Virus record (IMG/VR): IMGVR_UViG_2778261668_000004
Span: 1 to 11,820 of that record
DNA from: a virus
Lineage: Duplodnaviria > Heunggongvirae > Uroviricota > Caudoviricetes
DNA length: 11,820 nt
Reading direction: 5' to 3' (one strand)
The translations under genes and the position numbers were made by a program. Each line of letters begins with the position of its first letter. The first letter of the stretch is position 1. Shown here in pieces: positions 1-11,820 of the stretch. The notes beneath the pieces were generated by a model. It made no database searches. It had not been told where the DNA came from and worked only from the letters and a program-made list of their open reading frames with translations.

Positions 1-201
1 TTACCCATTGGCGCGGCTTAAGAGCTTATTTTTGAATTCACAATGGTCACGATATAACCATCTTGCTCGTCCGTGGATAACTTTGGCTTTAGGCAGGTCG
101 CCGGACTTAATCCGGTCATAGATGAAGGTCTTACCGAAGCCAGTATCGGCCATGATGAATTTCAAATCAACCAGTGAATCAGGCTGTAGTTCGTGTTGCA
201 T
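1..201 (-). CDS. torI: AlpA/Vis-family winged-helix excisionase (recombination directionality factor), TorI-like
   Basis: 66-aa ORF with ATG at 199-201 and stop at 1-3. Contains the AlpA/Vis HTH pattern (LKFIMADTGFGKTFIYDRIKSGDLPKAKVIHGRARWLY). Length and position at the opposite end from a 385-aa integrase match my recollection of K-12 TorI; the symbol is from memory, not a search. Confidence 0.8.
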   Translation of the reverse strand: MQHELQPDSLVDLKFIMADTGFGKTFIYDRIKSGDLPKAKVIHGRARWLYRDHCEFKNKLLSRANG

Positions 202-246
202 GAGTGCTATCTCCGAATAGGGAATCGAACCTGCAAATCAGGCAAG

Positions 247-269
247 AAAAAACCGCCATCAGGCGGCTT
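247..269 (-). terminator. Rho-independent terminator (minus strand)
   Basis: Minus-strand read: GCCGCC-TGAT-GGCGG followed by TTTTTT (plus-strand CCGCC 253-257, loop 258-261, GGCGG 262-266, A-run 247-252). The stop codon of the 259-426 ORF lies in the loop. Confidence 0.55.
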
Positions 270-426
270 GGTGTTCTTTCAGTTCTTCAATTCGAATGTT
301 GGTTACGTCTGCATGTGCTATCTGCGCCCACAGCATCCAGTGGTCATAGCAGTCGCTGATGTTCTCGGCTTCGATAACTCTGTTGAATGGTTCTCCATTC
401 CATTCACCTGTGACTCGGAAGTGCAT
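259..426 (-). CDS. Small hypothetical protein (55 aa), not in ORF track
   Basis: My own translation of the reverse complement: MHFRVTGEWNGEPFNRVIEAENISDCYDHWMLWAQIAHADVTNIRIEELKEHQAA. ATG at 424-426 preceded by GGAG with a 7-nt spacer; stop TGA at 259-261. Below the track length cut-off. It sits between two terminators. Confidence 0.4.
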   Translation of the reverse strand: MHFRVTGEWNGEPFNRVIEAENISDCYDHWMLWAQIAHADVTNIRIEELKEHQAA

Positions 427-437
427 TTGTCATCTCC

Positions 438-464
438 ATAAAATAAAACTCGCCGTAGCGAGTT
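438..464 (-). terminator. Rho-independent terminator (minus strand) downstream of the DUF551 gene
   Basis: 7-bp stem AACTCGC (447-453) / GCGAGTT (458-464) with 4-nt loop; on the minus strand it is followed by UUAUUUUAU (plus A/T run 438-446). Confidence 0.55.
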
Positions 465-526
465 CAGATAAAAGAAATCCCCGCGAGTGCGAGGATTGTT
501 ATTCACCTTTAACGGCAAGTTGCAGG

Positions 527-1081
527 TTAGCCACGGTTTACCTCCTGCGGCGGTTCCGGTAGCGGCATCCAGTGAGTTGCTTGCTCAATGCCATTACCCG
601 GCTTAATCGTTGCATCTCCGCGCCGAAAGGTGCTTCCGGTATAGCGTGCGGAGCATATTAGCGGTTCAACCAGAGAGCTATCGAAATTCACCGAAATAAG
701 CACGTTCTGGCCCTTTTCAGGCATTCGCTCACTACAGCTTATCCAACCATCCGGAGTTACCGGAGAGCTGCCATTTACATCGAAGTTTGGCTCTGCGTCC
801 TGAACCAGGAGGATGTAACCATTCTTGGCAGTATCAAGTTCTAACGCCTCGGTGACGGTGCCGAAATAGCGATTACCTAAATCAGCATCACAAGTGCTTA
901 CATCAATGGAAACTTCCATGCCTTCGATTAATTCTGGCAAGTTGTAAGTTTGGCTTACAGGCTCTGCTTCCAGCGATGCCAGCGTAATCCGTGCAAGTTC
1001 CATTTGTTCACCACGGGTAAGCCCGTTTTCAAGCGGATTTTTAATGAACAATTCAATACGTTCTTTGGTAATAGTGGTCAT
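527..1081 (-). CDS. Phage protein with C-terminal DUF551 domain (X member of duplicated cassette)
   Basis: 184-aa ORF. The C-terminal GWISCSERMPEKGQNVL...ATHWMPLPEPP matches the DUF551 pattern as I recall it. N-terminal ~42 aa (…ITLASLEAEPV) are shared with the 1357-1722 product. AAGGAG sits 6 nt upstream of the ATG at 1079-1081. Confidence 0.85.
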   Translation of the reverse strand: MTTITKERIELFIKNPLENGLTRGEQMELARITLASLEAEPVSQTYNLPELIEGMEVSIDVSTCDADLGNRYFGTVTEALELDTAKNGYILLVQDAEPNFDVNGSSPVTPDGWISCSERMPEKGQNVLISVNFDSSLVEPLICSARYTGSTFRRGDATIKPGNGIEQATHWMPLPEPPQEVNRG

Positions 1082-1091
1082 GTGTTACTCC

Positions 1092-1355
1092 TTAACCCGC
1101 AGTGCTTTCAACTGACGAGGGGAACAAAATCTTTTCTTCAAATCCGGCATTCATATCATGGACAGCAACACACCAATCCATTGACGAACGATTATCAAGA
1201 GCCTCCATGATTTCATCCATGCGGCGTAGGTCATACAGGTAAATGCTTTTATCGCCAATGGTGTAAAAACCAATTTTTTTCGGTGACGGGCAGCGATCAA
1301 GAACGTTCTGTAATTCGCTCAACCATGCCTGTTCCTTTTTTGTCAAAGTTGCCAT
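1092..1355 (-). CDS. Hypothetical phage protein (Y member of duplicated cassette), 87 aa
   Basis: Start trimmed from the track's GTG at 1388 to the ATG at 1353-1355, which is preceded by AGGAGAG and the upstream gene's TGA stop (translational coupling). Product MATLTKKEQAWLSELQ… shows weak but consistent similarity to the 1726-2013 product. Confidence 0.7.
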   Translation of the reverse strand: MATLTKKEQAWLSELQNVLDRCPSPKKIGFYTIGDKSIYLYDLRRMDEIMEALDNRSSMDWCVAVHDMNAGFEEKILFPSSVESTAG

Positions 1356-1356
1356 A

Positions 1357-1722
1357 TCACTCTCCTTTCCCCTGAAGCATAGCGGCACGACAGGCGTTCC
1401 AGCCTCTCACCTCTGCAATAGCGGCAACAGCATCAACCGCGTACATTTTAAGAGGGTTAGGCATTGGTTTTTCTTCAGGTACTACTGGCACTGGAGGGGC
1501 GGCATAAACAGGAATAACGTCCGATTGCTCTTTATTGCTTTCATCCGTTAAAGCCCAGAATAATTTTCCAGCCGGATGTTTGAAAATATAAGCAACTGGT
1601 TCTGCTTCCAGCGATGCCAGAGCAATTTCATAAGCCCGACGCTCAATATTGTCTCGGACGTCCAGGCTGCCTATGCGCTCTTTGATTTCTTTAATCATTT
1701 CTTTGTCGGTAAAAGTAGTCAT
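1357..1722 (-). CDS. Hypothetical phage protein (X' member), 121 aa, shares N-terminal domain with the DUF551 protein
   Basis: N-terminus MTTFTDKEM…IALASLEAEPV aligns with MTTITKERI…ITLASLEAEPV of the 527-1081 product; the C-terminal half is unrelated and Pro-rich. Start context …TAACACATGACTAC is near-identical to that of the 527-1081 gene. Confidence 0.75.
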   Translation of the reverse strand: MTTFTDKEMIKEIKERIGSLDVRDNIERRAYEIALASLEAEPVAYIFKHPAGKLFWALTDESNKEQSDVIPVYAAPPVPVVPEEKPMPNPLKMYAVDAVAAIAEVRGWNACRAAMLQGKGE

Positions 1723-1725
1723 GTG

Positions 1726-2013
1726 TTAGTCCTCATCCACTTCAACCCCATCTTTCAGCGTGATGCCGTGCCAATCATCAGCCCAACTGGTTAGCCCTGG
1801 CGCATCAATGCTAGGCATATAGACGCTTGCAGTGTGGTAGCCCTTATCGTTATCAATGCTGGCAACGTGCTCGCCGTTGTATGCGCTCAGCGTGTCCAGG
1901 ACGCTATAAAACTTTCCTCCGGATGCCCTGAAATCCTTTACAGCCTTCACAAGGCGATTCCACGCTTTTTCCTGTTCTGGCGTCAGGTCGATTAATTCCT
2001 GCAAAGTTGCCAT
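1726..2013 (-). CDS. Hypothetical phage protein (Y' member), 95 aa
   Basis: ATG at 2011-2013 preceded by AAGGAGGG and the TGA stop of the upstream ORF. The junction GGAG-N-GTGATATGGCAAC is repeated at the start of the 1092-1355 gene. Confidence 0.7.
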   Translation of the reverse strand: MATLQELIDLTPEQEKAWNRLVKAVKDFRASGGKFYSVLDTLSAYNGEHVASIDNDKGYHTASVYMPSIDAPGLTSWADDWHGITLKDGVEVDED

Positions 2014-2014
2014 A

Positions 2015-2257
2015 TCACCCTCCTTTGATGCGAATGCCAGTGGTACTCATTCTCCTGATTTCCCAGAGCACACGAGGAACACCACCGTTTCCGACCGGAT
2101 CGCGTTTACTCCGCAGCGCGACGCTTGATTCCGCCCAGCTTTTTCTTGGAGGAAGCTCTTTCACACGAACAAAACCAGCTGCGCGAAGAGATGCTCCTGA
2201 TTCATCTGCCTGGGTGTACGTAATACAACGTTGATAACCCATACCCGTGTTGGTCAC
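2015..2257 (-). pseudogene. Probable 3' remnant of a C5-cytosine DNA methyltransferase gene
   Basis: The 80-aa ORF has no convincing start (GTG at 2257 with no usable SD; internal ATG at 2242 has a weak SD). Its product carries motifs resembling C5-MTase motifs IX and X (…SLRAAGF… and …GNGGVPRVLWEI, compare GNxV…VL..I). An ORF this short cannot encode a methyltransferase. It abuts the suspected deletion junction. The family call is from remembered motif patterns only. Confidence 0.4.
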
Positions 2258-2342
2258 CTTGATGATGCTTATAGCAGCAATGGAAAGCCTGTAGGCATCA
2301 CGATTTATCAGTTACCGCGCTCAAAATACGAGGAGCTAAAGA

Positions 2343-3017
2343 ATGTTAATTTTCCAGATTGCCAATAAGCACCTCAGCAAAGCTGTGTACTGCAAAGGTG
2401 GCAGTGATGGCGGCTCAAAAGCCCAGGCACGCGCAACTGAAAAGGGTATCGAACTGCAGCGTGAAATGTGGCAAACGAACATGCAGAACCTTGCACCGTT
2501 CACGCCACTCGCTCAGCAGTACGTATCACAGTTGCAAAATCTTTCCTCTCTTCAGGGGCAAGGTCAGGCACTTAACCAGTATTACAACTCTCAGCAGTAT
2601 AAAGACCTTGCAGGTCAGGCGCGTTACCAGAGTCTGGCAGCAGCAGAGGCAACGGGTGGATTAGGCTCTACAGCAACAGGAAACCAGTTAGCAGCAATCG
2701 CACCTACACTCGGTCAAAACTGGCTGTCAGGTCAGATGAACAACTACAACAATCTGGCAAATATCGGCCTTGGTGCTCTTACAGGTCAGGCAAATGCCGG
2801 ACAGAACTACGCTAACAACCTCAGCCAACTGTATCAACAGCAGGCGGCAGCATCTGCGGCGAATGCTAACCGACCATCAGGACTGCAATCAGCCTTGGGA
2901 GGTGCCATGAGCGGTGCGGCATCAGGGGCGATGATTGGCTCTGTGGTGCCAGGAATAGGTACGGCTGTTGGCGCTATTGGTGGCGGCATTATCGGTGGTC
3001 TTGGATCATTGTTTTAA
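2343..3017 (+). CDS. Ejection (DNA-transfer/internal virion) protein, P22 gp7-like
   Basis: 224-aa Gln/Asn/Ala/Gly-rich protein with a glycine-zipper-like C-terminal tail. First of three consecutive genes whose sizes (224/433/665 aa) and position immediately before a P22-type tailspike mirror P22 genes 7/20/16. SD GAGGAG 7 nt upstream. Confidence 0.75.
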   Translation: MLIFQIANKHLSKAVYCKGGSDGGSKAQARATEKGIELQREMWQTNMQNLAPFTPLAQQYVSQLQNLSSLQGQGQALNQYYNSQQYKDLAGQARYQSLAAAEATGGLGSTATGNQLAAIAPTLGQNWLSGQMNNYNNLANIGLGALTGQANAGQNYANNLSQLYQQQAAASAANANRPSGLQSALGGAMSGAASGAMIGSVVPGIGTAVGAIGGGIIGGLGSLF

Positions 3018-3026
3018 GGTGGGAAT

Positions 3027-4328
3027 ATGGCTACTTGGCAACAAGGAATCAACTCAGGCGGCTTTCTTGCTGGTATCGGTGGGCAAAACTCAAATGCGCC
3101 AAAGGCAAGTGATGTAAGTGAGGCGTTGGCCTATATTCGCCAGAACAACGAAATGGAGCGCTCAGGTCGCAATAACATCGGCCTTCAGGCGTTGCAGGGA
3201 CTTGGTAGTGTCGCTCAAACATATCAAGCTGCAAAGCAACAGGAAGCGGATGCTGCATTCCAAAAAGAATATGCGGCAGCCATCCAGTCCGGTGATCGAC
3301 AGCAGGTTCGAGATCTGATGACCAAATATCCTGGTCAATTAGAGAAGATTCAGTCTGGTATGAAGTGGGCAGACGAAGACCAGCGCAATTCTATCGGCAC
3401 CTTAGCGGCTGGCGCACGCCTTGCGGCCTCGTCTCCAGAAGCAATGCAATCATGGCTGCAAAACAACGCCAAGGAACTGGCGCGCGTCGGTGTTGACCCT
3501 AACAGCGTTGCTCAGATGTATCAGCAGAACCCTTCAGGATTTGGTGAGTTTGTTGATCACCTTGGAATGGCCGCTCTTGGTCCGATTGATTACTTCAATG
3601 TTCAGGACAAGATGGCTGGTCGTGAGATTGACCGAGGCAGGCTGGCAGAGACAATCCGCAGCAATCAGGCAGGAGAAGCACTAACAGCTCGAGGTCAGGA
3701 CATCCAGATACGTGGACAGAACATCAGCGCACAGAATGCTGCTCTTTCCCGAGAAATACAAAGAGCAGAATTACAAGAAAAGGCTCTGGACAGACAGATA
3801 GCCAGAGAAAGCAATCAGTTAAAGCTTGAAGAGCTAAAACAGAAACAGGCAGATGTTCGGCAAAAGGCTGACATAGCCCGCGCTGACAGGCAGGCCGCCG
3901 CTCAGGGTGCAGTTGATACGTTCAGCACCGCGCTTGATTCTCTCAACGAGATAGAGCAAAGCCCAGGCCTTTCAAAAGCAGTAGGAATTCGCTCAGCGTT
4001 TCCGACAGTTCCTGGCTCTGATGCGGCTAACTTTGAAGCAAGGCTCGACACCTTTAAAGCTCAAACATTCCTTCCTATGGTGCAGTCCCTGAAGGGTATG
4101 GGAGCTCTTTCAGATGCTGAGGGTAAAAAATTATCCGATGCGGTTGGTGCCCTAAGCCCCAAAATGAGTGAAAAGGCTTTTCGTGACTCTATCGGAAAGA
4201 TTAGAAATCAGCTTGAAAGCAAGTTGAGCACTGTTAAAAAACAGTTTGATTATCAGGAGCCGGTGCAGAATATTCCAAGGCAACAATCTACTACTGGCAG
4301 TAACTTTTCTTCACTATGGGGTGATTAA
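3027..4328 (+). CDS. Ejection protein, P22 gp20-like
   Basis: 433-aa protein with long predicted coiled-coil segments (…REIQRAELQEKALDRQIARESNQLKLEELKQKQADVRQKADIARADRQ…). SD AAGGTGGG upstream; its stop overlaps the next start (TAATG). Confidence 0.75.
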   Translation: MATWQQGINSGGFLAGIGGQNSNAPKASDVSEALAYIRQNNEMERSGRNNIGLQALQGLGSVAQTYQAAKQQEADAAFQKEYAAAIQSGDRQQVRDLMTKYPGQLEKIQSGMKWADEDQRNSIGTLAAGARLAASSPEAMQSWLQNNAKELARVGVDPNSVAQMYQQNPSGFGEFVDHLGMAALGPIDYFNVQDKMAGREIDRGRLAETIRSNQAGEALTARGQDIQIRGQNISAQNAALSREIQRAELQEKALDRQIARESNQLKLEELKQKQADVRQKADIARADRQAAAQGAVDTFSTALDSLNEIEQSPGLSKAVGIRSAFPTVPGSDAANFEARLDTFKAQTFLPMVQSLKGMGALSDAEGKKLSDAVGALSPKMSEKAFRDSIGKIRNQLESKLSTVKKQFDYQEPVQNIPRQQSTTGSNFSSLWGD

Positions 4329-6325
4329 TGGCTAAAGCATGGAAAGATGTTATCGCCTCTCCACAGTATCAGGCGTTAGCACCAGAACAAAAAGCGCAGG
4401 CTCAGGAGCAATACTTCAATGAAGTCGTGGCCCCGCAAGCCGGAGAAAATGCAGAGCAGGCTAAGCAAGCTTTCTATGCTGCCTATCCATTGCCATCTGT
4501 GCAGCCAGTGGAGACACAACAACCAGTATCACAGCAACAACCACAGCAAAGTGGATTTATGTCGGATCTTGGTGAAGCCGTGAAAGAAACTGGTCGCGGA
4601 CTGGTGCAGGCTGGCGTGAACGTGGCAAACATACCTGCATCAGTTGCCGATGCTATAACAAGCGCGGCGGCTTGGGCTGGCGGTAAACTCGGAATTGGCG
4701 ATGGGACATATCACCCAACGCCACGAGTAACAACGCAGGGATTAGAGCAGGACTTTGGCCTTCAGCAAGGCGCGCTGACTCCACAAACGACAGAGGGAAG
4801 GGTATTTGCTGAAGCATTGCCTTACCTCACTCCTGCTGGCGTTGAGAGAGCGGCATCACAGGCACCAACACTTGCTGGTCGAATTGCTCAGGGGGCAACT
4901 CGCCTTCTCGCTGAAAACGCAGTTGGATCACTTGCTGCAAATAGTGCGAAAGATGATGCGGAAGCACTCGCCACCGATTTAGGCGTTGGCGTTCTGGCTG
5001 GCGGCGCTATTAACGCTGCCGGACGTGGATTAGGCGCTGCTTATCGTGGCGTTCGTGGTGCTATTGCACCAGAAGCGCAGCAAGCTATCAGATTTGCAGA
5101 GCGTGAAGGAGTGCCTCTGCACACCACAGACCTGTTACAGCCTACTTCCCGCGTCGGGAAAATGGCGCAGACTACAGCAGAAAATATCCCTCTGGCTGGC
5201 ACAAGCGGAATGAGAGCAACGCAACAGGAAGCGAGAAGCCAGTTGGTGCAGAGATTTGCTGATAAATTCGGCGAGTACGATCCGGCAGTTGTTATTGACA
5301 GCCTTAAAGCGAAAACATCAGGAATTCGTCGTGCTGCCGGTAATCGACTGGAGCAGGTTCAGAATGCTATGGCTGGAGTAAACATTCAGCCTGTGCGAGC
5401 AATTCAGCAGATTGATACTGAGATATCTAACCTGCAGAAGCTTGGTAAGGTCGCTGATAACGAGACGATTTCAAAACTTCAATCCTATCGTGATGAGCTT
5501 ATTCGCAATGCTGGTCCTGATGGTCCGGTAAATCTGGATTTGAAGCAATTAAGCGATCTGCGCAGCCAGTTCAGAATGGACGTGAAGGGGGAACGACCAG
5601 TGTTACCAAACCGTTCCGATGCTGCCATTCAGCGCGTTTACAAGGCAATGACCGACGATATCAATGGCGCCATTGGTCAGAATCTTGGCAACGATACTCT
5701 CCGTAAATATCAGCAGGCCAATGCCGTCTATGCTGACGAAGCAGCGAAACTAAAGAATACCAGGCTGAAGAATGTTCTCATGAAAGGCGATCTGACGCCG
5801 GAAGTTGTCAACAACATGCTATTCAGCAAGAACAAATCGGAAATTAAGACTCTGTATAACTCAGTTGGTCGTGTTGGCAGGGCGCAAATGCGCAATGGCA
5901 TCATTGGAAAGGCGATGGAGAAATCAGGTGGTTCCCCTGACCAGTTCCTTCGGCAGCTTAACATCCTGCAAAACCAGACTGGCATCACATTTAAAGGTCA
6001 GGAAGCCGCTTATCTGAAAGGATTGAAAAACTACCTGCAATCCACGCAGCAGGCTGCAAAAGCGGCAGTAACAACACCAACAGGGCAGCAAACCATCCCG
6101 TTCATTATCGGGTATGGGACGGCAATGAACCCGGCAACAACTGGCGCAGCAGTAAGCTACGGACTTCTTACTCGCGCCTATGAGAGCGAGCCATTCAGAA
6201 ATGCAATGCTCCGAATGGCAAACACACCACGCGGATCAACAGCGTTTGAGAAAGCCATGCAGCAGGCGCAAAAGGCCATTAACGCCATGACGCAGGGGGC
6301 TAAGTCTGATGCATTGTCAGAATAG
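4328..6325 (+). CDS. Ejection protein, P22 gp16-like
   Basis: 665-aa Ala/Gln-rich protein, translationally coupled to the preceding gene (TAATG overlap). Third member of the trio by position and size. Confidence 0.75.
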   Translation: MAKAWKDVIASPQYQALAPEQKAQAQEQYFNEVVAPQAGENAEQAKQAFYAAYPLPSVQPVETQQPVSQQQPQQSGFMSDLGEAVKETGRGLVQAGVNVANIPASVADAITSAAAWAGGKLGIGDGTYHPTPRVTTQGLEQDFGLQQGALTPQTTEGRVFAEALPYLTPAGVERAASQAPTLAGRIAQGATRLLAENAVGSLAANSAKDDAEALATDLGVGVLAGGAINAAGRGLGAAYRGVRGAIAPEAQQAIRFAEREGVPLHTTDLLQPTSRVGKMAQTTAENIPLAGTSGMRATQQEARSQLVQRFADKFGEYDPAVVIDSLKAKTSGIRRAAGNRLEQVQNAMAGVNIQPVRAIQQIDTEISNLQKLGKVADNETISKLQSYRDELIRNAGPDGPVNLDLKQLSDLRSQFRMDVKGERPVLPNRSDAAIQRVYKAMTDDINGAIGQNLGNDTLRKYQQANAVYADEAAKLKNTRLKNVLMKGDLTPEVVNNMLFSKNKSEIKTLYNSVGRVGRAQMRNGIIGKAMEKSGGSPDQFLRQLNILQNQTGITFKGQEAAYLKGLKNYLQSTQQAAKAAVTTPTGQQTIPFIIGYGTAMNPATTGAAVSYGLLTRAYESEPFRNAMLRMANTPRGSTAFEKAMQQAQKAINAMTQGAKSDALSE

Positions 6326-6489
6326 CTTCGCAAACACCAGGAACGTGCAAAAACCAAATATGTAGAACGTAATGTTCAACAAATCTCTTTGCATAGACTC
6401 ATCTCATAATTAACAAATCATAACTGACATTAGTGCAATGCCGGGCAGGTTGCGTCTTGTCCGGAATTGCTACGTCCGGAGCAAATTAA

Positions 6490-7953
6490 ATGACAGACAT
6501 TACAGCCAATGTTGTAATTGGGATGCCTTCGCAACTCTTCACTATGGCTCGTTCTTTTAAAGCGGTTGCCAATGGCAAAATTTATATCGGTAAAATTGAC
6601 ACTGACCCGGTAAATCCTGAAAACCAGATTCAGGTTTATGTGGAAAACGAAGACGGTTCTCACGTTCCTGTTTCTCAACCAATCATCATTAACGCTGCTG
6701 GATATCCGGTATATAACGGACAGATTGCCAAATTCGTAACTGTGCAAGGCCATTCTATGGCTGTTTATGATGCTCTAGGAGTACGGCAGCACTATTTTTC
6801 TGACGTGCTTAAATATAATCCAAACACCCTGAGAAATGAGCTGGCTCAGGACGATGGAATGAAGCTGATCGGGCAGAAGGTAAACTACGGAAGACCAACT
6901 GGATCATCACTGACTCAGGGGGTGATGTGGTTATTTGATAAGGAAAAAGGATCTCTTAGAGTTGGTGGCTCTGATCTTGAGCCGCTAGATGACGAGAAGA
7001 ACTACTGGCGAGGACTTCCATCAAGAAACTCATGGGGAGACCCAGCCATGATTGGTGACTACTCCGTATCTTTTAACAGAAACGGTGCGTCATTCGCGGT
7101 ATACACCACAACTTTCGGGCATGACTGCGTTACGTATGGCGTGGCATCTATTGCCGGTGGTGCTGGTTCTGCTACTGGCAACCCAGATCAAATTACCTCA
7201 CCAAATGCTGAAGGGTACTGCTCTTTTGCATTTGGGAAAAATGTCATTGCTCTTGGCGCAAAATCTGCCGCATTCTGTGAAGAAACGGAAGCGCTTTCAA
7301 GGGCGGCTTTTACAACAGGTTATTTTACGCAAGCCAGACCGGGATACACTACAGACCCCGGCGGGGTTGCAAGTGATGGCATTGGTGCGGCGGCCATTGG
7401 ATATCGAACTCGCGCGGCAGGAGATGGCTCTTTTGCTGTAGGTAAGAATATTCAGGCTTATGGTGGTTCGATTGCGATCGGGTGCGGCACTGATGAAGAT
7501 AACCCAGCAGTCAATCCACATAAAGACTCAGTGATGCTGTTTGCAAAATCGCTTATTCCAGGTATATCCGTTGTACCTGGTGGCGGTGGGCCGGAGGAAC
7601 CATCGCGTGTAGGGGTGCACACAAAATACCCTAAAGAAATAGTGGATGTAGTACTGGAGGGAGGGGGCCACGCAGCCATCAGAATACCAGGGATAGGAAC
7701 TGGTACGATCTTGCTGCAAGGGACAGATAACGACGGCAATGCACTTTCTATCGCGTCGCTTGAATGGACAAGCGGAAACGGAGGTAGTGCTGTTGGTTCG
7801 TTGAAAATAAACATGAACAACGACGCACCATGCATTGAATTTCTGGAAGATGGCAAGGTGGTTTTGAAGAACGTAAAAACGCTTGAGGAGATAAACGGCG
7901 CCCCCGCGGGCACCATTTATAAGGATGCTTCTAACTTCCTTAAGATTGTTTAA
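6490..7953 (+). CDS. Tailspike/tail fiber with P22-type head-binding domain and non-canonical distal domain
   Basis: The N-terminal ~125 aa ([11 protein letters not shown]…[38 protein letters not shown]…[13 protein letters not shown]…VLKYNP) closely match the P22 gp9 head-binding domain as I recall it. The remaining ~360 aa are unrelated to the P22 enzymatic domain and contain short Gly/Ala-rich repeats (SFAVG, AAIGY, SIAIG). At 487 aa it is shorter than the classical tailspikes I know. Confidence 0.9.
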
Positions 7954-9065
7954 GAGAAGTCATCGCCAAGGAAGGCGGTGAGAAGCGCTTCTGCAATCAC
8001 CCTATGGCCTAGGTCCGCAGGATGGTTAACCCCGTTGCCAGTGATAGCATATCTATTTTTTACTTGCAGTAATTGTTGCCATACGTTCGTAATATCAACA
8101 AAAGTAACATGATTATATTTAAGAGAAAGTTTTTTTAACTCCTCGCTATAAAGAGGGAAGTATTCTTTCTTAGGTAAAATCCATTCTGGATTTGGTAAAA
8201 TTGATGATAGCAGAACTATACGAGCATTCTTATTCTTGCTTTTTATGTTTTTGATAAGCGCATCAATATTAAACGAGTAGGACTCGGCAGGAACATCTGT
8301 CGCATCATTCATACCAAAAGCGATAATATAAATGTCTGAATTTAGCTTTGTTAATCTTCCATCTGTATTATAGTACGCGTTATTTGTGTTCCATCCTGCC
8401 ACTGATGGATTGTAGTAATAGTATTTTCCACCCTTCACCATAGACATATAAGCAGACACCAGACCAACATATGGAGGTTGATGTGGCTCTGAGTATGTAT
8501 CGGTAGCATTGGCTCCGAAAGTGATGCTGTCACCATAATAAGTCACCCTCATTTCATTCAGGCTTTTAACATAATTACGTAAGTCCGTAACCTCACCACT
8601 CATCTTTAGGCAAAGGCGATCATCTTTCTTGTAAGAGGCTGAAATCTGATACTGCTGATACTCAGTAGTTACGTTAACGTTGAAGTTTTTATCTTCTTTA
8701 ATTGGTTTGTTTAATCCGGATTTTGCAACAGGAATTATTGAACCTTCAGGAATAGATATGCCATCTCCGGAAACCTTGAAGTCACTGCCATTATGATAGA
8801 TAGCTCCAGTCGTTTGGTTGAACATCATAACCGGCCCGATAGGTTTGAATAATAAACGGTCTGTTTTAAAGTCTTCAGATGCATAAATAATATCTGAATA
8901 GATGAATTGCCCACCAAAGAAAGAAGGGTGAATATTAAACTTATTCACAATGTAGTTGCTGCACTTTACATCCGTACACGTCGTGTAGTCATCAGGTGCA
9001 ACTGGTATTTCAGCGGCGGCGCTGAATGACACAGAAAATAGTGAAGTAATAATTAATTTTTTCAT
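7950..9065 (-). CDS. Secreted SGNH/GDSL-family hydrolase-like protein with N-terminal extension
   Basis: 371 aa with an N-terminal signal peptide ([18 protein letters not shown] / EIP, no lipobox). SGNH blocks are present: GDS in [16 protein letters not shown], and DxxH in [11 protein letters not shown] at 9063-9065 overlaps the upstream AT3 stop (ATGA); SD GGAGAA lies within the AT3 3' end. The gene is visibly AT-rich by eye. Confidence 0.85.
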
Positions 9066-10135
9066 TTAGCTTCTCCGTATGCTTTTTTCTTTATCCAGCC
9101 ATTAACAGGCTTTTCTATAAGCTTATAGCAGGCAAGAGCAATAATCTGACAATAGATATAGTATATGATGACATAAGGCAAGATTCCCACGGTCTTATCG
9201 AGCCCGAACTGTGTCCAGATAAACAGGAAAACAGGTGCTGAAATACCATGTGACAGGTAAAGGCTGTAAGATGAGTCACCCAGCAGCAGGAAAGTGCGGT
9301 TGTGAGGAATAACCCCTTCAAGGCTCAGAGCCGACCAGACAATCACGAACGCCGGGATGCCCCATGTCAGCAGTCGGGAATAATCGTTATAAGCAAAAAC
9401 ACCCGAGTTAGCGAAAGCAAAAAGCGGGAAGAAAGAAGCAATACCCACCCACGCCAGCCACTTCGGCAGGACGCATCCTGCGGAATACATCCGGTACAGA
9501 TACATGCCAAGGATAAACTCGATAAACATCTGGCTGGATAGCGTTACCAGAACCTTACTTTCGCCGTGAGCCAGCGCATTACCTGCGCCGAAAACTACCA
9601 GGGCGCAGACTGAATAAAACTCGAGCGAATTTGCTTTCTTGATGCCAATCGCAAGAAGACCCGCAAGCAAGAAATAGAACAGGAATTCAAACTGCAAAGT
9701 CCAGCCGATTCCAAGAATTGGTGGCTTGTCAAAGTTCATGAACGTCATCGTTTTGATGATCCACATGAGGTCTAGCCGCGAGCCGTTGAAGATATATGCA
9801 AAATCTGCAGTAGGTTGGGATATAGCACCAGAATCAACCAGCCATGATATGAACACAACGACTAGTGTTGCCACAAGGTACAAAGGCCATATGCGAGTTA
9901 TGCGGCGCTTTATGAAACCCAGCGGCGTTAATTTTGGCGTCATGCCATCCTTATAGAGGCCGCCGTAAATAATGTACGGCATTATAAAGCCGCTGATGAT
10001 GAAAAATATGTCAACGCCAACACCGCCAAGGTTTGTGATCTGTGGGGTGATGCCATAAACGGCAAGGTTTGCGTGAGCATAAATCACGAGGAAAGCGGCG
10101 AGAAAACGTAAATATTGTATGTTGGCAATCATCAT
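9062..10135 (-). CDS. Acyltransferase family 3 (AT3) integral membrane O-acyltransferase, Oac/OafA-like
   Basis: Polytopic hydrophobic protein with AT3 hallmarks: N-terminal R…H (LRFLAAFLVIYAH) and VDIFFIISGFIM. Start is ambiguous: TTG at 10136-10138 (track start) or ATG at 10133-10135 or 10130-10132; I chose the first ATG. Confidence 0.9.
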   Translation of the reverse strand: MMIANIQYLRFLAAFLVIYAHANLAVYGITPQITNLGGVGVDIFFIISGFIMPYIIYGGLYKDGMTPKLTPLGFIKRRITRIWPLYLVATLVVVFISWLVDSGAISQPTADFAYIFNGSRLDLMWIIKTMTFMNFDKPPILGIGWTLQFEFLFYFLLAGLLAIGIKKANSLEFYSVCALVVFGAGNALAHGESKVLVTLSSQMFIEFILGMYLYRMYSAGCVLPKWLAWVGIASFFPLFAFANSGVFAYNDYSRLLTWGIPAFVIVWSALSLEGVIPHNRTFLLLGDSSYSLYLSHGISAPVFLFIWTQFGLDKTVGILPYVIIYYIYCQIIALACYKLIEKPVNGWIKKKAYGEAK

Positions 10136-10147
10136 CAACTTTCTAGT

Positions 10148-10174
10148 CTGTTAAAAGGCGAGTGATTTTAACAG
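10148..10174. promoter_or_regulatory. Perfect 9-bp inverted repeat carrying a candidate extended -10 for the AT3/SGNH operon
   Basis: CTGTTAAAA (10148-10156) – 9 bp – TTTTAACAG (10166-10174). On the minus strand the right arm reads TGTTAAAAT (TG-n-TAAAAT), placing a possible start site about 25-30 nt upstream of the AT3 start. No good -35 found. Confidence 0.4.
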
Positions 10175-10187
10175 CTAAGAGGAATCC

Positions 10188-10230
10188 GATCATTCTGTTT
10201 GCAAAAGCGACTTGATCGACATCACCGATC
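10188..10230. promoter_or_regulatory. Cluster of three Dam (GATC) sites upstream of the AT3/SGNH operon
   Basis: GATC at 10188-10191, 10214-10217 and 10227-10230, all within 43 bp, roughly 30-70 bp upstream of the candidate extended -10. Confidence 0.4.
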
Positions 10231-10235
10231 GATAA

Positions 10236-10255
10236 TACTGTATGTATATACAGTA
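10236..10255 (+). promoter_or_regulatory. LexA operator (SOS box) upstream of the umuD'-like gene
   Basis: TACTGTATGTATATACAGTA fits the E. coli consensus TACTG-(TA)5-CAGTA with one mismatch. It lies 18 bp upstream of the ATG at 10273, next to a GATAAT -10-like hexamer (10231-10236) and the SD GGAGGTGAG. Confidence 0.8.
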
Positions 10256-10272
10256 ACTATCGGAGGTGAGTT

Positions 10273-10656
10273 ATGGGATTCCCGAGCCCGGCTGCTGATT
10301 ACGTTGAGAGCCGACTTTCGCTTGATGAGCGATTCATCCACAAACCATCAGCTACGTACTATATGAAAGCTTCAGAGACCATCTATCGCTGCGGCATCAT
10401 GAAAGATGCGCTGCTTGTCATCGACTCGTCACTAAATCCCTGTGATGGCTCTTTGCTGGTCTGTGAGATAGGAGGTGAGTTTAAGGTGAAGATTTACCGC
10501 ACATATCCTCAGCCTCACCTTGAGAACGCGATGAATGGAAGAAAGGAAAAGTTACCTGGTCACTTCGAAGGGATAGAGAGCCCGGTATTTGGGGTCATCA
10601 CGTACATCATCAACGATGCGCTCACAGGTGAGTTTGATGATTGCCCGGTGATGTAG
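10273..10656 (+). CDS. UmuD'-like (pre-processed UmuD / HumD-like) peptidase-S24-fold protein lacking the catalytic serine
   Basis: 127-aa product starts MGFPSPAADYVE…, i.e. at the residue corresponding to Gly25 of E. coli UmuD (…QC/GFPSPAADYVEQ…). Aligned through …PSATY(F/Y)(V/M)KAS…LL(I/V)(V/I)DS…GEF(T/K)VK…VFGV(V/I)… The GDSM serine motif is replaced by ETIY; the Lys in EFKVK is retained. No umuC-like gene follows. Confidence 0.85.
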   Translation: MGFPSPAADYVESRLSLDERFIHKPSATYYMKASETIYRCGIMKDALLVIDSSLNPCDGSLLVCEIGGEFKVKIYRTYPQPHLENAMNGRKEKLPGHFEGIESPVFGVITYIINDALTGEFDDCPVM

Positions 10657-10676
10657 GTGGCGCTATGCCACCTTTT
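10656..10676 (+). terminator. Rho-independent terminator for the umuD'-like gene, embedded in the integrase 3' end
   Basis: Stem GGTGGC (10656-10661) / GCCACC (10667-10672), loop GCTAT, then TTTT (10673-10676). The integrase stop codon (10663-10665, minus) lies in the loop. No U-tract in the minus direction, so it is unidirectional. Confidence 0.6.
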
Positions 10677-11820
10677 CATCTAACCATTCAGCCCACCACT
10701 GCATCATTTCTCTGCGCTTATCGAGATACTGAGCATGGTTGTAAATCCCGCGCACAGATCCGCCGTTGGCATGTGCCAGTTGCACTTCAATAGCATCAGC
10801 AGGCCATTCGTTCTCGTTCATAATCGTGCTGAATTCATGCCTGAATCCGTGACCGCTTTCCAGACCCTCATAGCCGATTTGTTTGATCACAAGTAATACC
10901 GCGTTCTCGCAGATTGGCTTCTTCTTATCGTTGCGCCCGGCAAAAACAAACTCTGACACTGGTTTAGTGATTGAGCTTAGCGTAGTGAGAAGTTCAACTA
11001 CCTGGTCTGACATAGGAACCACATGAATTTTGCGTCCCTTCATCACATTGGCGTCGATGGTGATAATCCTGTTTTCAAAATCGACGTTCTTCCATAGCAT
11101 GGAACGAAGCTCTTTTGTTCTGAGGGCTGTGTAGCGTAAAACTTTGGTCGCAATGAGCGATACGATGCTTCCTGAAAATGTTGCCAGTGCTTTGTTAAAT
11201 GCCGGGATCTGGTCTGCATGAAGAAACGGGAAGTTTTTCTTGCGGTATCCCTTCATGGCGTCAGCAAGGTCAGGTGCCGGGTTATATTTAGCCCTACCAG
11301 TGACAATAGCGTAACGGAAAACCTCGCCGCATCTTCTGCGGGCTTTGTTGGCTCGCTCCATTGCACCGCGATCTTCAAATCTGCGGATTACTTCAAGAAG
11401 TTGCATCGGCTCAATATCCTGAATTTCAAGGCCGCCGATGATGGGTAAAATGTCGTCATCAAACATTTTTGCAAGTTCATTTGCATAGCCTACTGACCAG
11501 ACTTGCTTCTTGTGCTCGTACCATTCCTTGTAAATGGCGCTAAAGGAATTGTTGTTAGACGAAGCCTTTTTCGCTTTTACCGGATCGATGCCAACCGAGA
11601 TGTCTTTCCTCGCAGTCCATGCTTTATCCCTTGCTTCCTGCAAAGTCATAAGCGGATATTTTCCGACAGTCAGGATTTTCTCCTTACCGTCAATCTTGTA
11701 GCGAAGCTGCCATACCTTTTTCCCTGATACAGGGACATAAAGGTACAGGCCATTACCATCGAGTAGGCGGTATGGTTTTTCTTTCGGCTTTGCTGCTTCA
11801 ATCTGCTTAACGGTGAGCAT
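10663..11820 (-). CDS. intS: Tyrosine site-specific integrase with DUF4102-type N-terminal arm-binding domain (P4/IntS-like)
   Basis: 385 aa. N-terminus MLTVKQIEAAKPKEKPYRLLDGNGLYLYV…KKVWQLRYKIDGKEKILTVGKYP is the typical DUF4102 arm. C-terminal catalytic region has HGFRHEF (HxxR) and the tyrosine in …RGIYNHAQY. The ATG is at the last three bases of the window, so the true start could lie just outside. Symbol is from recollection of K-12 IntS. Confidence 0.9.
   Translation of the reverse strand: MLTVKQIEAAKPKEKPYRLLDGNGLYLYVPVSGKKVWQLRYKIDGKEKILTVGKYPLMTLQEARDKAWTARKDISVGIDPVKAKKASSNNNSFSAIYKEWYEHKKQVWSVGYANELAKMFDDDILPIIGGLEIQDIEPMQLLEVIRRFEDRGAMERANKARRRCGEVFRYAIVTGRAKYNPAPDLADAMKGYRKKNFPFLHADQIPAFNKALATFSGSIVSLIATKVLRYTALRTKELRSMLWKNVDFENRIITIDANVMKGRKIHVVPMSDQVVELLTTLSSITKPVSEFVFAGRNDKKKPICENAVLLVIKQIGYEGLESGHGFRHEFSTIMNENEWPADAIEVQLAHANGGSVRGIYNHAQYLDKRREMMQWWAEWLDEKVA

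Follow-up and report, generated by a model that had tools for sequence, protein, structure and literature searches.

The DNA considered here is a stretch of 11,820 nucleotides (nt), referred to throughout as the window, from the IMG/VR virus record IMGVR_UViG_2778261668_000004 (Caudoviricetes), and our subject is a run of small minus-strand genes within it whose junctions are repeated almost letter for letter. In order of transcription the run comprises an open reading frame (ORF) of the XF1762 family (2257-2015), a small gene named Y', a modular gene X', a second small gene Y, a second modular gene X, a group of hairpins, a 55-amino-acid (aa) ORF and an excisionase gene. A first-pass annotation, made from the letters of the sequence, had seen in Y'-X'-Y-X a tandemly duplicated two-gene cassette of a kind known from effector or anti-defence loci. 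The genes are as that annotation described them; their history appears to be another matter.

The genes of the locus

All four ORFs, in the order Y'-X'-Y-X, are real at the sizes first reported: Y' (1726..2013; this and the genes below are on the minus strand) has 95 aa, X' (1357..1722) 121 aa, Y (1092..1355) 87 aa counted from its ATG and X (527..1081) 184 aa. Upstream lies the XF1762-family ORF (2015..2257), Mom-like or GNAT-like, which is truncated at its 5' end, closes with ...TGIRIKGG and a stop, and matches the NCBIfam model XF1762_fam (E 1.7e-15) over profile positions 87-130 of 143 only; its full-length form of 163 aa is found elsewhere (L023 and H1). The gaps from this ORF through Y', X' and Y to X are 1, 3, 1 and 10 nt, each of Y', X', Y and X has its own Shine-Dalgarno (SD) sequence, and two of the starts lie 1 nt past the upstream stop, an arrangement that suggests translational coupling of the genes.

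X and X' are chains of modules. From its N-terminus, X consists of a module called N1 (MTTITKERIELFIKNPLENGLTRGEQMELAR), the peptide ITLASLEAEPV, a middle block (window 774-937) and DUF551, the last spanning aa 112-179 (545..748, minus strand; PF04448, E 2.6e-22) with 79.9 bits against a Pfam cutoff of 22. X' is made of a different module, N2, followed by IALASLEAEPV, a small middle module, the linker AAPPVPVVPEE and a tail, GWNACRAAMLQGKGE, that runs to the stop codon; as had been noticed, DUF551 is in X only, and X' has a proline-rich stretch instead. At E<=0.1 X' has no Pfam match and X none but DUF551, NCBIfam holds no match for X, X', Y or Y', and sequence searches of the PDB with the same four proteins returned nothing. 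The N2 module of X' is 83% identical to YfdT of Escherichia coli K-12 over aa 1-42 (E 1e-21), and the YfdT-like N-terminus MTTFT(D/N)KE...ERRAYEIAL(A/V)SLE(A/V)EP is present in it; X, of the N1 subtype, resembles YfdT weakly (33% identity, E 0.026).

An N-terminal module of about 43 aa had been described as common to X and X'. Its two ends are indeed held in common, namely the MTT-T start and the 11-residue I-LASLEAEPV close; the remainder, a middle of equal length, is dissimilar. BLASTP aligns 18 aa of the two proteins (ITLASLEAEPV..., E 1e-4), and the similarity over residues 1-31 does not exceed that of shuffled sequences (p=0.13). The closing peptide occurs in 72 distinct DNA versions, in which I-A-L-x-S-L-E-A-E-P-V/I is constant and the codons vary synonymously (ATT/ATC/ATA, GCA/GCG/GCT, GAG/GAA, CCG/CCA/CCT). 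Invariant residues written in synonymous codons indicate that IALASLEAEPV is selected as protein, beyond any part its DNA may play as a crossover patch. The N-module that ends in it may be a protein-level functional element presenting variable C-terminal domains and, by analogy with the N-terminus and coiled coil of the phage protein Ea22, is probably helical, an oligomerisation or adaptor piece. In full-text literature searches no paper was found to contain the motif LASLEAEP, and PMC4776307 was the only source of functional information on YfdT.

The small proteins offer less to hold on to. The AF2 (AlphaFold2) model of Y, a small alpha/beta protein, is confident (pLDDT, the predicted local distance difference test score, 91.3), with a helix, two strands, two helices and a strand in succession; that of Y' is poor (pLDDT 58.9) and opens with a helix and then a hairpin. 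BFVD holds one unnamed relative of Y and no match for the Y' model, and Pfam searches with nine longer or fused Y homologues gave no matches. Members of the Y' family were found in Enterobacterales prophages only. A longer version of Y, a 98-aa ORF with a GTG start (to 1388, MPLCFRGKESDM...), is a read-through of the junction upstream and does not mark the true start. Prefixes of the type ...AFASKESDM... in other IMG/VR loci are the junction read in another frame, where mechanical ORF calls have extended the start. Read-through calls of this sort (window 1356-1388, and many IMG/VR loci) have likely left mis-annotated N-termini in databases.

Repeated junctions and the modules between them

Two units can be set side by side, Y' with the N-module of X' and Y with that of X. 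They are similar in size (426 vs 406 nt), and their likeness as DNA is confined to three blocks of 25-32 nt, J1, J2 and J3. The first, J1, lies on the minus strand at 2002..2026 (J1a, AAAGGAGGGTGATATGGCAACTTTG) and 1344..1368 (J1b, AAAGGAGAGTGATATGGCAACTTTG), identical at 24 of 25 nt (AAAGGAGrGTGATATGGCAACTTTG): in J1a the SD sequence AAGGAG is read as K-G-G in the upstream frame and is followed by TGA, a 1-nt spacer, ATG and the first codons of Y', and J1b joins the KGE-stop end of X' to the Y start and includes the SD. J2 carries the SD and start of X' at 1708..1738 (J2a, ..GAGGACTAACACATGACTAC..) and of X at 1067..1097 (J2b, ..GGAGTAACACATGACCAC..), on the same strand, with 26 of 31 nt identical around the core TAACACATGAC. 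J3, again on the minus strand, is intragenic; its copy in X' (J3a, 1595..1626, a breakpoint hotspot) encodes (E)IALASLEAEPV and its copy in X (J3b, 957..988) ITLASLEAEPV, and the two agree at 28 of 32 nt, 20 nt exactly, with a core that encodes LASLEAE.

The window contains exactly two copies of each core, where 200 shuffles lead one to expect 0.00-0.01, so the repeated junctions are real and not the work of chance; the nucleotide-level conservation reported in the first pass therefore holds. The consensus of J1, (GCATTCGCATC)AAAGGAGrGTGAT-ATG-GCA-ACT, packs SD, stop and start together, the SD doubling as the K-G-E tail of the upstream protein; that of J2, GGAsTAACAC-ATG-ACy-AC, gives the SD and start of X-type genes; and that of J3, CTGGCATCGCTGGAAGCAGA, is translated as (I)ALASLEAE(PV) and closes the short N-terminal module. 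The upstream stop had been placed inside the SD of the Y starts. Both elements are in the junction, as claimed, but the TGA falls 1 nt before the ATG and it is the SD (AAGGAG) that supplies the K-G-E/G codons.

Outside the window the junctions keep very mixed company. A first scan of IMG/VR gave at least 119 loci and at least 123 junction matches, with at least five unrelated families among the complete ORFs downstream of J1 (Y 85, Y' 24 and three others) and at least ten families among the ORFs that end at it, all in KGE and a stop. A second scan, with the upstream half of J1 (TCGCATCAAAGGAGnGTGATATG), yielded at least 16 downstream and at least eight upstream families, the downstream ones including X-type genes, a 171-aa family and several small Cys-rich proteins. 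The J2 sequence, TAACAC followed by ATG, stands before 100 of 223 X-type starts, after several different upstream genes. As for J3, the LASLEAE block comes after at least nine N-module clusters and before 29 C-part clusters, in 45 combinations and 133 distinct proteins, the C-parts including DUF551, a dATP/dGTP pyrophosphohydrolase (PF04447) and many without a Pfam match; the first impression of a constant N-terminal piece with swappable C-parts is correct. X-type proteins contain further recurring linkers and tails, (V/L)YAAPPxPVVP(E/D)E, GWNACRAAML(Q/H)G and AEPV, which look like additional module joints; AEPVSQTY(K/N)L, for one, comes after LASLE in X and after AAMLHG in another such protein (P0219).

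Where similarity ends is as telling as where it is found. When window positions 1-2400 were compared with 221 loci, a biased sample in that the loci had been reached through two of the junction motifs, the ends of similarity clustered at 540-584, 720-779, 960-1004, 1050-1094 and 1335-1409, with further clusters at about 1500, 1590-1634, 1710-1739 and 1995-2054. These breakpoints fall at J1, J2, J3 and a few other domain or linker borders, and none falls inside a module; both edges of DUF551 (5', 712-773; 3', 500-578) are conserved blocks as well as breakpoint clusters. Blocks common to unrelated flanking genes, and breakpoints that coincide with those blocks, are what the boundary-sequence model of phage mosaicism looks for, and both are present here.

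The blocks could in principle be nothing but signals for translation initiation and coupling, together with a conserved peptide, all kept by selection and playing no part in recombination, the mosaic having come from illegitimate recombination filtered by selection. J1 and J2 do hold strong SDs at ideal spacing from the ATG, IALASLEAEPV is under selection at the protein level, and this explanation is an accepted alternative in the field (PMC3233612). The identity nevertheless exceeds what an SD and a start need, extending over 25-32 nt with third-codon positions included and over 26 nt shared with lambda ea22, and it is at these blocks that breakpoints recur; we think it improbable that signals suffice.

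Module order varies from prophage to prophage. Relatives of Y, Y', N1 and N2 at least 94% identical to those of the window are found in other prophages, apart and in other orders: one locus (L014) reads Y, a 177-aa gene, Y' and an N2-type X, another (L038) an N1-like X, Y, the same 177-aa gene and an N2-type X. A third (L023) matches XF1762-Y'-X'-Y at 98.7% identity and begins to diverge 20 nt into X. The two copies in the window are, then, not each other's closest relatives, and a tandem duplication, the original interpretation, does not fit units whose interiors are unrelated and whose near-identical junctions are common to many unrelated genes.

X'-Y-X and a single DUF551 gene

The clearest view of how the modules fit together comes from genes in which they are joined differently. 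At 94-98% identity X' corresponds to the first ~120 residues of many DUF551 proteins of 185-212 aa, and its 121-aa form ending in KGE and a stop is also found elsewhere. When window 1760-500 was aligned by blastn with a locus carrying one such undivided gene (L296, gene P0219), window 1722-1370 was 95% identical; the next ~401 nt, 1369-968 on the minus strand (Y plus the N1 module), were absent; 967-938, encoding AEPVSQTYNL, matched at 27 of 30; 937-774, the middle block of X, was absent; 773-712 matched at 94%; the DUF551 core differed; and 578-500, with the stop and the sequence downstream, matched at 97%. X'-Y-X is thus colinear with one DUF551 gene elsewhere, save for clean block insertions or deletions, and these colinear flanks without the block imply that Y+N1 acts as an inserted or deleted module. 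Read in order, the block, 968..1369, brings a stop and a ribosome-binding site (RBS), then the Y gene, then another RBS with a start codon, and lastly a new N-terminus. Its arrival would close the upstream half of the gene with KGE and a stop, add a small gene and restart the downstream half with a new N-terminus.

Whether Y and X are partners

Neighbour counts were taken from 290 IMG/VR loci. After Y (n=93) came an N1-type X in 47, N3 in 13, N2 in eight, another X in five, a non-X gene in eight and nothing within 80 nt in 12. Seen from the other side, Y preceded 47 of 70 N1-type X genes; before N2-type X genes (n=62) stood Y' in 24, Y in eight and other genes in 30; and before the N3 type stood Y in 13 and others in 36. 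In K-12 the N-module of X', as YfdT, comes after YfdS and not after a Y' gene. Among more distant homologues of Y, that of an Edwardsiella lambdoid prophage stands before an X-type gene whose N-module is different again, a Pectobacterium P2-like prophage has Y after gpA and before an unrelated gene, and in an S. diarizonae prophage Y is followed by an unrelated 59-aa gene. The association of Y with X is therefore neither exclusive nor obligatory, and it matches what close physical linkage (about 130 nt) would lead one to expect.

These counts bear on the idea from which the first-pass annotation began, that a two-gene cassette of partner Y and adaptor-effector X was duplicated in tandem and diverged, with Y and X cooperating as effector and immunity protein, as a toxin-antitoxin pair, or as an anti-defence protein and its chaperone. 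That the units are laid out in parallel and are of similar size speaks for it, as do the X-type gene that comes next after Y in 73 of 93 loci and after Y' in 24 of 25 (all 24 N2-type), the Edwardsiella prophage that keeps the order Y then X despite its different N-module, and a weak profile signal between Y and Y'. The predicted co-occurrence was accordingly found in that direction; it fails in the other, with Y' before only 24 of 62 N2-type and Y before 47 of 70 N1-type X genes. Unrelated interiors beside near-identical junctions are, moreover, a misfit for duplication followed by divergence, the same junctions border many unrelated genes, and elsewhere each unit is found by itself and in different orders. 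Most N2-type X genes have no Y', and P2-like and other prophages carry Y homologues with no X gene, which with YfdT standing after YfdS tells against a dedicated two-gene system. Nor did the suggested kinship with effector or anti-defence loci find support: PADLOC and Pfam returned no defence, anti-defence or toxin match, Pfam nothing beyond DUF551, and for X, X', Y and Y' no relatives were found among solved structures. We hold the duplicated cassette to be very unlikely.

A different kind of common descent deserves more patience. The units could be ancient, diverged alleles, idiomorph-like, of a single "small gene plus N-module" unit, stacked by unequal recombination and not by local duplication, selection and recombination having held their ends uniform. 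Bounding sequences and internal organisation are the same in both units and the lengths are similar, both N-modules start with MTT-T-(D)KE and end with IALASLEAEPV, and the models of Y and Y' both open with a helix and then a beta-hairpin. Direct comparison of Y with Y' gave little encouragement to the earlier view of them as distant paralogs: BLASTP produced no alignment, a shuffle test gave p~0.12, the two belong to different PHROGs (phrog_1714 for Y, phrog_2821 for Y'), and hhalign of shallow alignments of the two families (A1 vs A2) returned a probability of 0.3%, with no signal in global mode or against a reversed control. An exhaustive search, however, enlarged the Y family to 207 clusters, and the resulting deep profile (Neff, the effective number of sequences, 5.3) aligned with Y' over 46 columns (Y 3-51, Y' 9-55) at E 0.005; its score of 18.7 exceeded all of 150 column shuffles (mean 10.9, standard deviation 2.0, maximum 16.7). 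This hints that the N-terminal halves of Y and Y' are remotely related. Yet the hhalign probability is only 7% and shuffled columns make a lenient null, little confidence attaches to the Y' model, the C-terminal halves of the two proteins share nothing, and the middles of N1 and N2 are no more alike than shuffles. We regard ancient alleles as possible, though somewhat doubtful.

Probable assembly by recombination at boundary sequences

In the account that we prefer, and consider probably correct, recombination at boundary sequences built 527-2257, a mosaic that forms the xis-proximal part of the early-left accessory (exo-xis or "ea") region in a defective lambdoid prophage, P22-like and of CPS-53/KplE1 type. 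The repeated blocks would be boundary sequences of pan-lambdoid distribution and not relics of a local duplication. Homologous recombination at these 20-30-nt patches, between co-resident or co-infecting lambdoid genomes, would exchange, insert and delete the modules between them. In the window two "small gene plus N-module" modules would have been stacked, Y'+N2 and then Y+N1, the second splitting a DUF551 gene that is single in other prophages into X' and X. That the junctions are promiscuous, that breakpoints cluster at them, that modules change order and that X'-Y-X aligns colinearly with one gene elsewhere is shown above; what we infer beyond this is that recombination is targeted to the junctions and that the joints are not just selected afterwards.

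A bolder variant would have alternative insertion cassettes, each made of a KGE-stop/SD, a Y-type gene, an SD/start and an N-module of ~40 aa that closes with IALASLEAEPV, entering the flexible linkers of modular exo-xis proteins, with Y as the cognate partner of the adaptor and the X-type proteins as a large, polymorphic family of effectors directed at the host, which would have the adaptor in common and swap their C-terminal warheads. If this were true, a cassette would split one gene into two functional ORFs and endow the downstream half with a conserved N-terminal adaptor; we judge it unlikely.

Several considerations weigh against recombination at boundary sequences as the explanation. 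Because the junction motifs themselves served to retrieve the IMG/VR loci, frequencies and breakpoint histograms are biased toward these junctions. Conserved junctions could persist just as translation signals, with illegitimate recombination and selection making the joints. The weak Y/Y' profile signal, the parallel layout and the units of 426 vs 406 nt leave room for an ancient common origin. Window 1-2700 contains no sigma-70-like promoter, where 3.6 would be expected, and with PL in the deleted part of the prophage (below) the ea genes of this remnant may go unexpressed.

If the preferred account is right, an apparent locus of duplicated adaptor and partner is ordinary lambdoid mosaicism, and recognising it as such avoids mistaking it for a new effector or anti-defence system. 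Exchanged units may straddle gene borders and split or fuse modular genes, which affects annotation and the building of families; the PHROG and DUF551 families, for instance, chain unrelated modules. IALASLEAEPV is a motif under selection in a large and uncharacterised protein family to which YfdT belongs, and the fold of Y is predicted with confidence and has no solved relative; both are sensible subjects for functional study of the exo-xis region.

Genomic context

The exo-xis region of lambda corresponds to the "ea" accessory region of P22. Of 5,426 complete E. coli genomes, 3,764 carry parts of window 400-2300 by BLAST, as do 531 phage records, mainly of Shiga toxin (Stx)-converting, Escherichia, Salmonella and other enterobacterial phages; the whole arrangement is in none of the 5,426 genomes, and no record covers 80% or more of 400-2300. 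In annotated examples the homologues sit between RecT or Erf/Abc2 and an excisionase or integrase. In the window, two terminator-like hairpins lie 3' of X (446..497, minus strand, at 497-476 and 465-446; from a consensus scan only), and another on that strand was seen at 269-250. The 55-aa ORF (259-426, minus strand, phrog_676) and the excisionase TorI (1-201, minus strand, 100% identical to K-12 TorI), together at 1..426, mark the xis-proximal end of the exo-xis/ea region.

TorI (1-201) and IntS (10663-11820) are the last and first genes of the K-12 cryptic prophage CPS-53/KplE1, at argW, from which it follows that the window is an entire CPS-53-type remnant, bounded by the start of intS and the stop of torI. 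A circular element of 11.8 kb had been suggested by the xis stop at position 1 abutting the int start at 11820; this was rejected, as TorI and IntS are prophage end genes and, in genomes that have both pieces together, these span 749 bp, against 500 for the joined ends. At ~2242-2243 lies a deletion joint, at which the minus-strand XF1762 ORF meets the 3' end of a plus-strand DUF2824 (gp14-like) gene. The remnant has consequently lost all that would normally stand between an ea-region gene and P22-like DNA-ejection genes, and the joint is in no complete E. coli genome. What was kept in 2343-10656 includes three P22-type ejection proteins, namely gp7 (PF25688), a gp20-like injectosome translocase (PF16928) and a 665-aa protein without a Pfam match at the gp16 position, as well as a tailspike with a P22 head-binding domain. 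An SGNH/GDSL protein and an Acyl_transf_3 acyltransferase, likely concerned with O-antigen modification, and a short S24-peptidase-like ORF are found there as well.

Comparison with known systems

With effector/immunity or toxin-antitoxin cassettes the locus has a superficial likeness in its constant N-terminus, variable C-termini and small neighbouring gene. Here, however, the small gene is upstream, is not specific to the variable C-part and is not obligatory, the N-modules of X-type proteins are themselves highly diverse, and matches to toxin, immunity or defence domains are lacking.

Closer at hand is K-12 CPS-53 with yfdS and yfdT, a prophage of the same type, with TorI at 100% and IntS present. 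The 83% identity of X' to YfdT extends over aa 1-42, and X has DUF551 as YfdS does. In their C-terminal parts the proteins are not alike, K-12 lacks both Y and Y', and YfdQ and YfdR are absent from the window. In K-12, YfdT or YfdS, plus YfdQ and YfdR, is needed for multicopy inhibition of replication initiation (PMC4776307); the requirement for YfdS or YfdT is the nearest thing to a functional hint for these families, and the only one.

In the exo-xis region of lambda and Stx phages, too, the X/X' slot has its counterpart, between recombination genes and xis. The Ea22 genes encoded there are mosaic, with an N-terminal segment and coiled coil followed by varied C-terminal domains, DUF551 among them (PMC10834534), so that a constant N-terminus with variable C-terminal domains is an architecture already known for this genome region. 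Ea22 is like X and X' in its conserved N-terminal part, its variable C-terminal domains (DUF551 in Ea22_V2) and its K-G-E tail, the last in X' only, which ends in QGKGE and a stop where X ends in NRG. It is unlike them in that X and X' match no Ead_Ea22 model (PF13935/IPR025153) and have no long coiled coil, and their N-modules, of the MTTITKE...IALASLEAEPV type, are another family. All Ea22 proteins end in K/R-G-E, a feature whose significance has been called unknown (PMC7093339). The lambda protein ends in ...AGIRIKGE, and the 3' end of its gene, GCTGGCATTCGCATCAAAGGAGAGTGA (L222 1048-1075), is identical at 25 of 26 positions to window 2040-2015, the end of the unrelated XF1762 gene. The tail is probably AAA-GGA-GAG, the SD of a next gene read in the upstream frame, combined with a shared boundary sequence. 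No lambda gene starts after the ea22 junction, which looks vestigial there.

The locus also conforms to the boundary-sequence model of lambdoid mosaicism (Susskind & Botstein 1978 and Clark et al. 2001, on HK620, both as cited in PMC3233612, where the rival model of illegitimate recombination followed by selection is also given). The likeness lies in short conserved borders that are common to unrelated modules and coincide with breakpoints. The differences are that one junction here, J3, is intragenic and conserved as a peptide too, and that the exchanged unit straddles a gene border, being made of a small gene and the first ~40 codons of the next.

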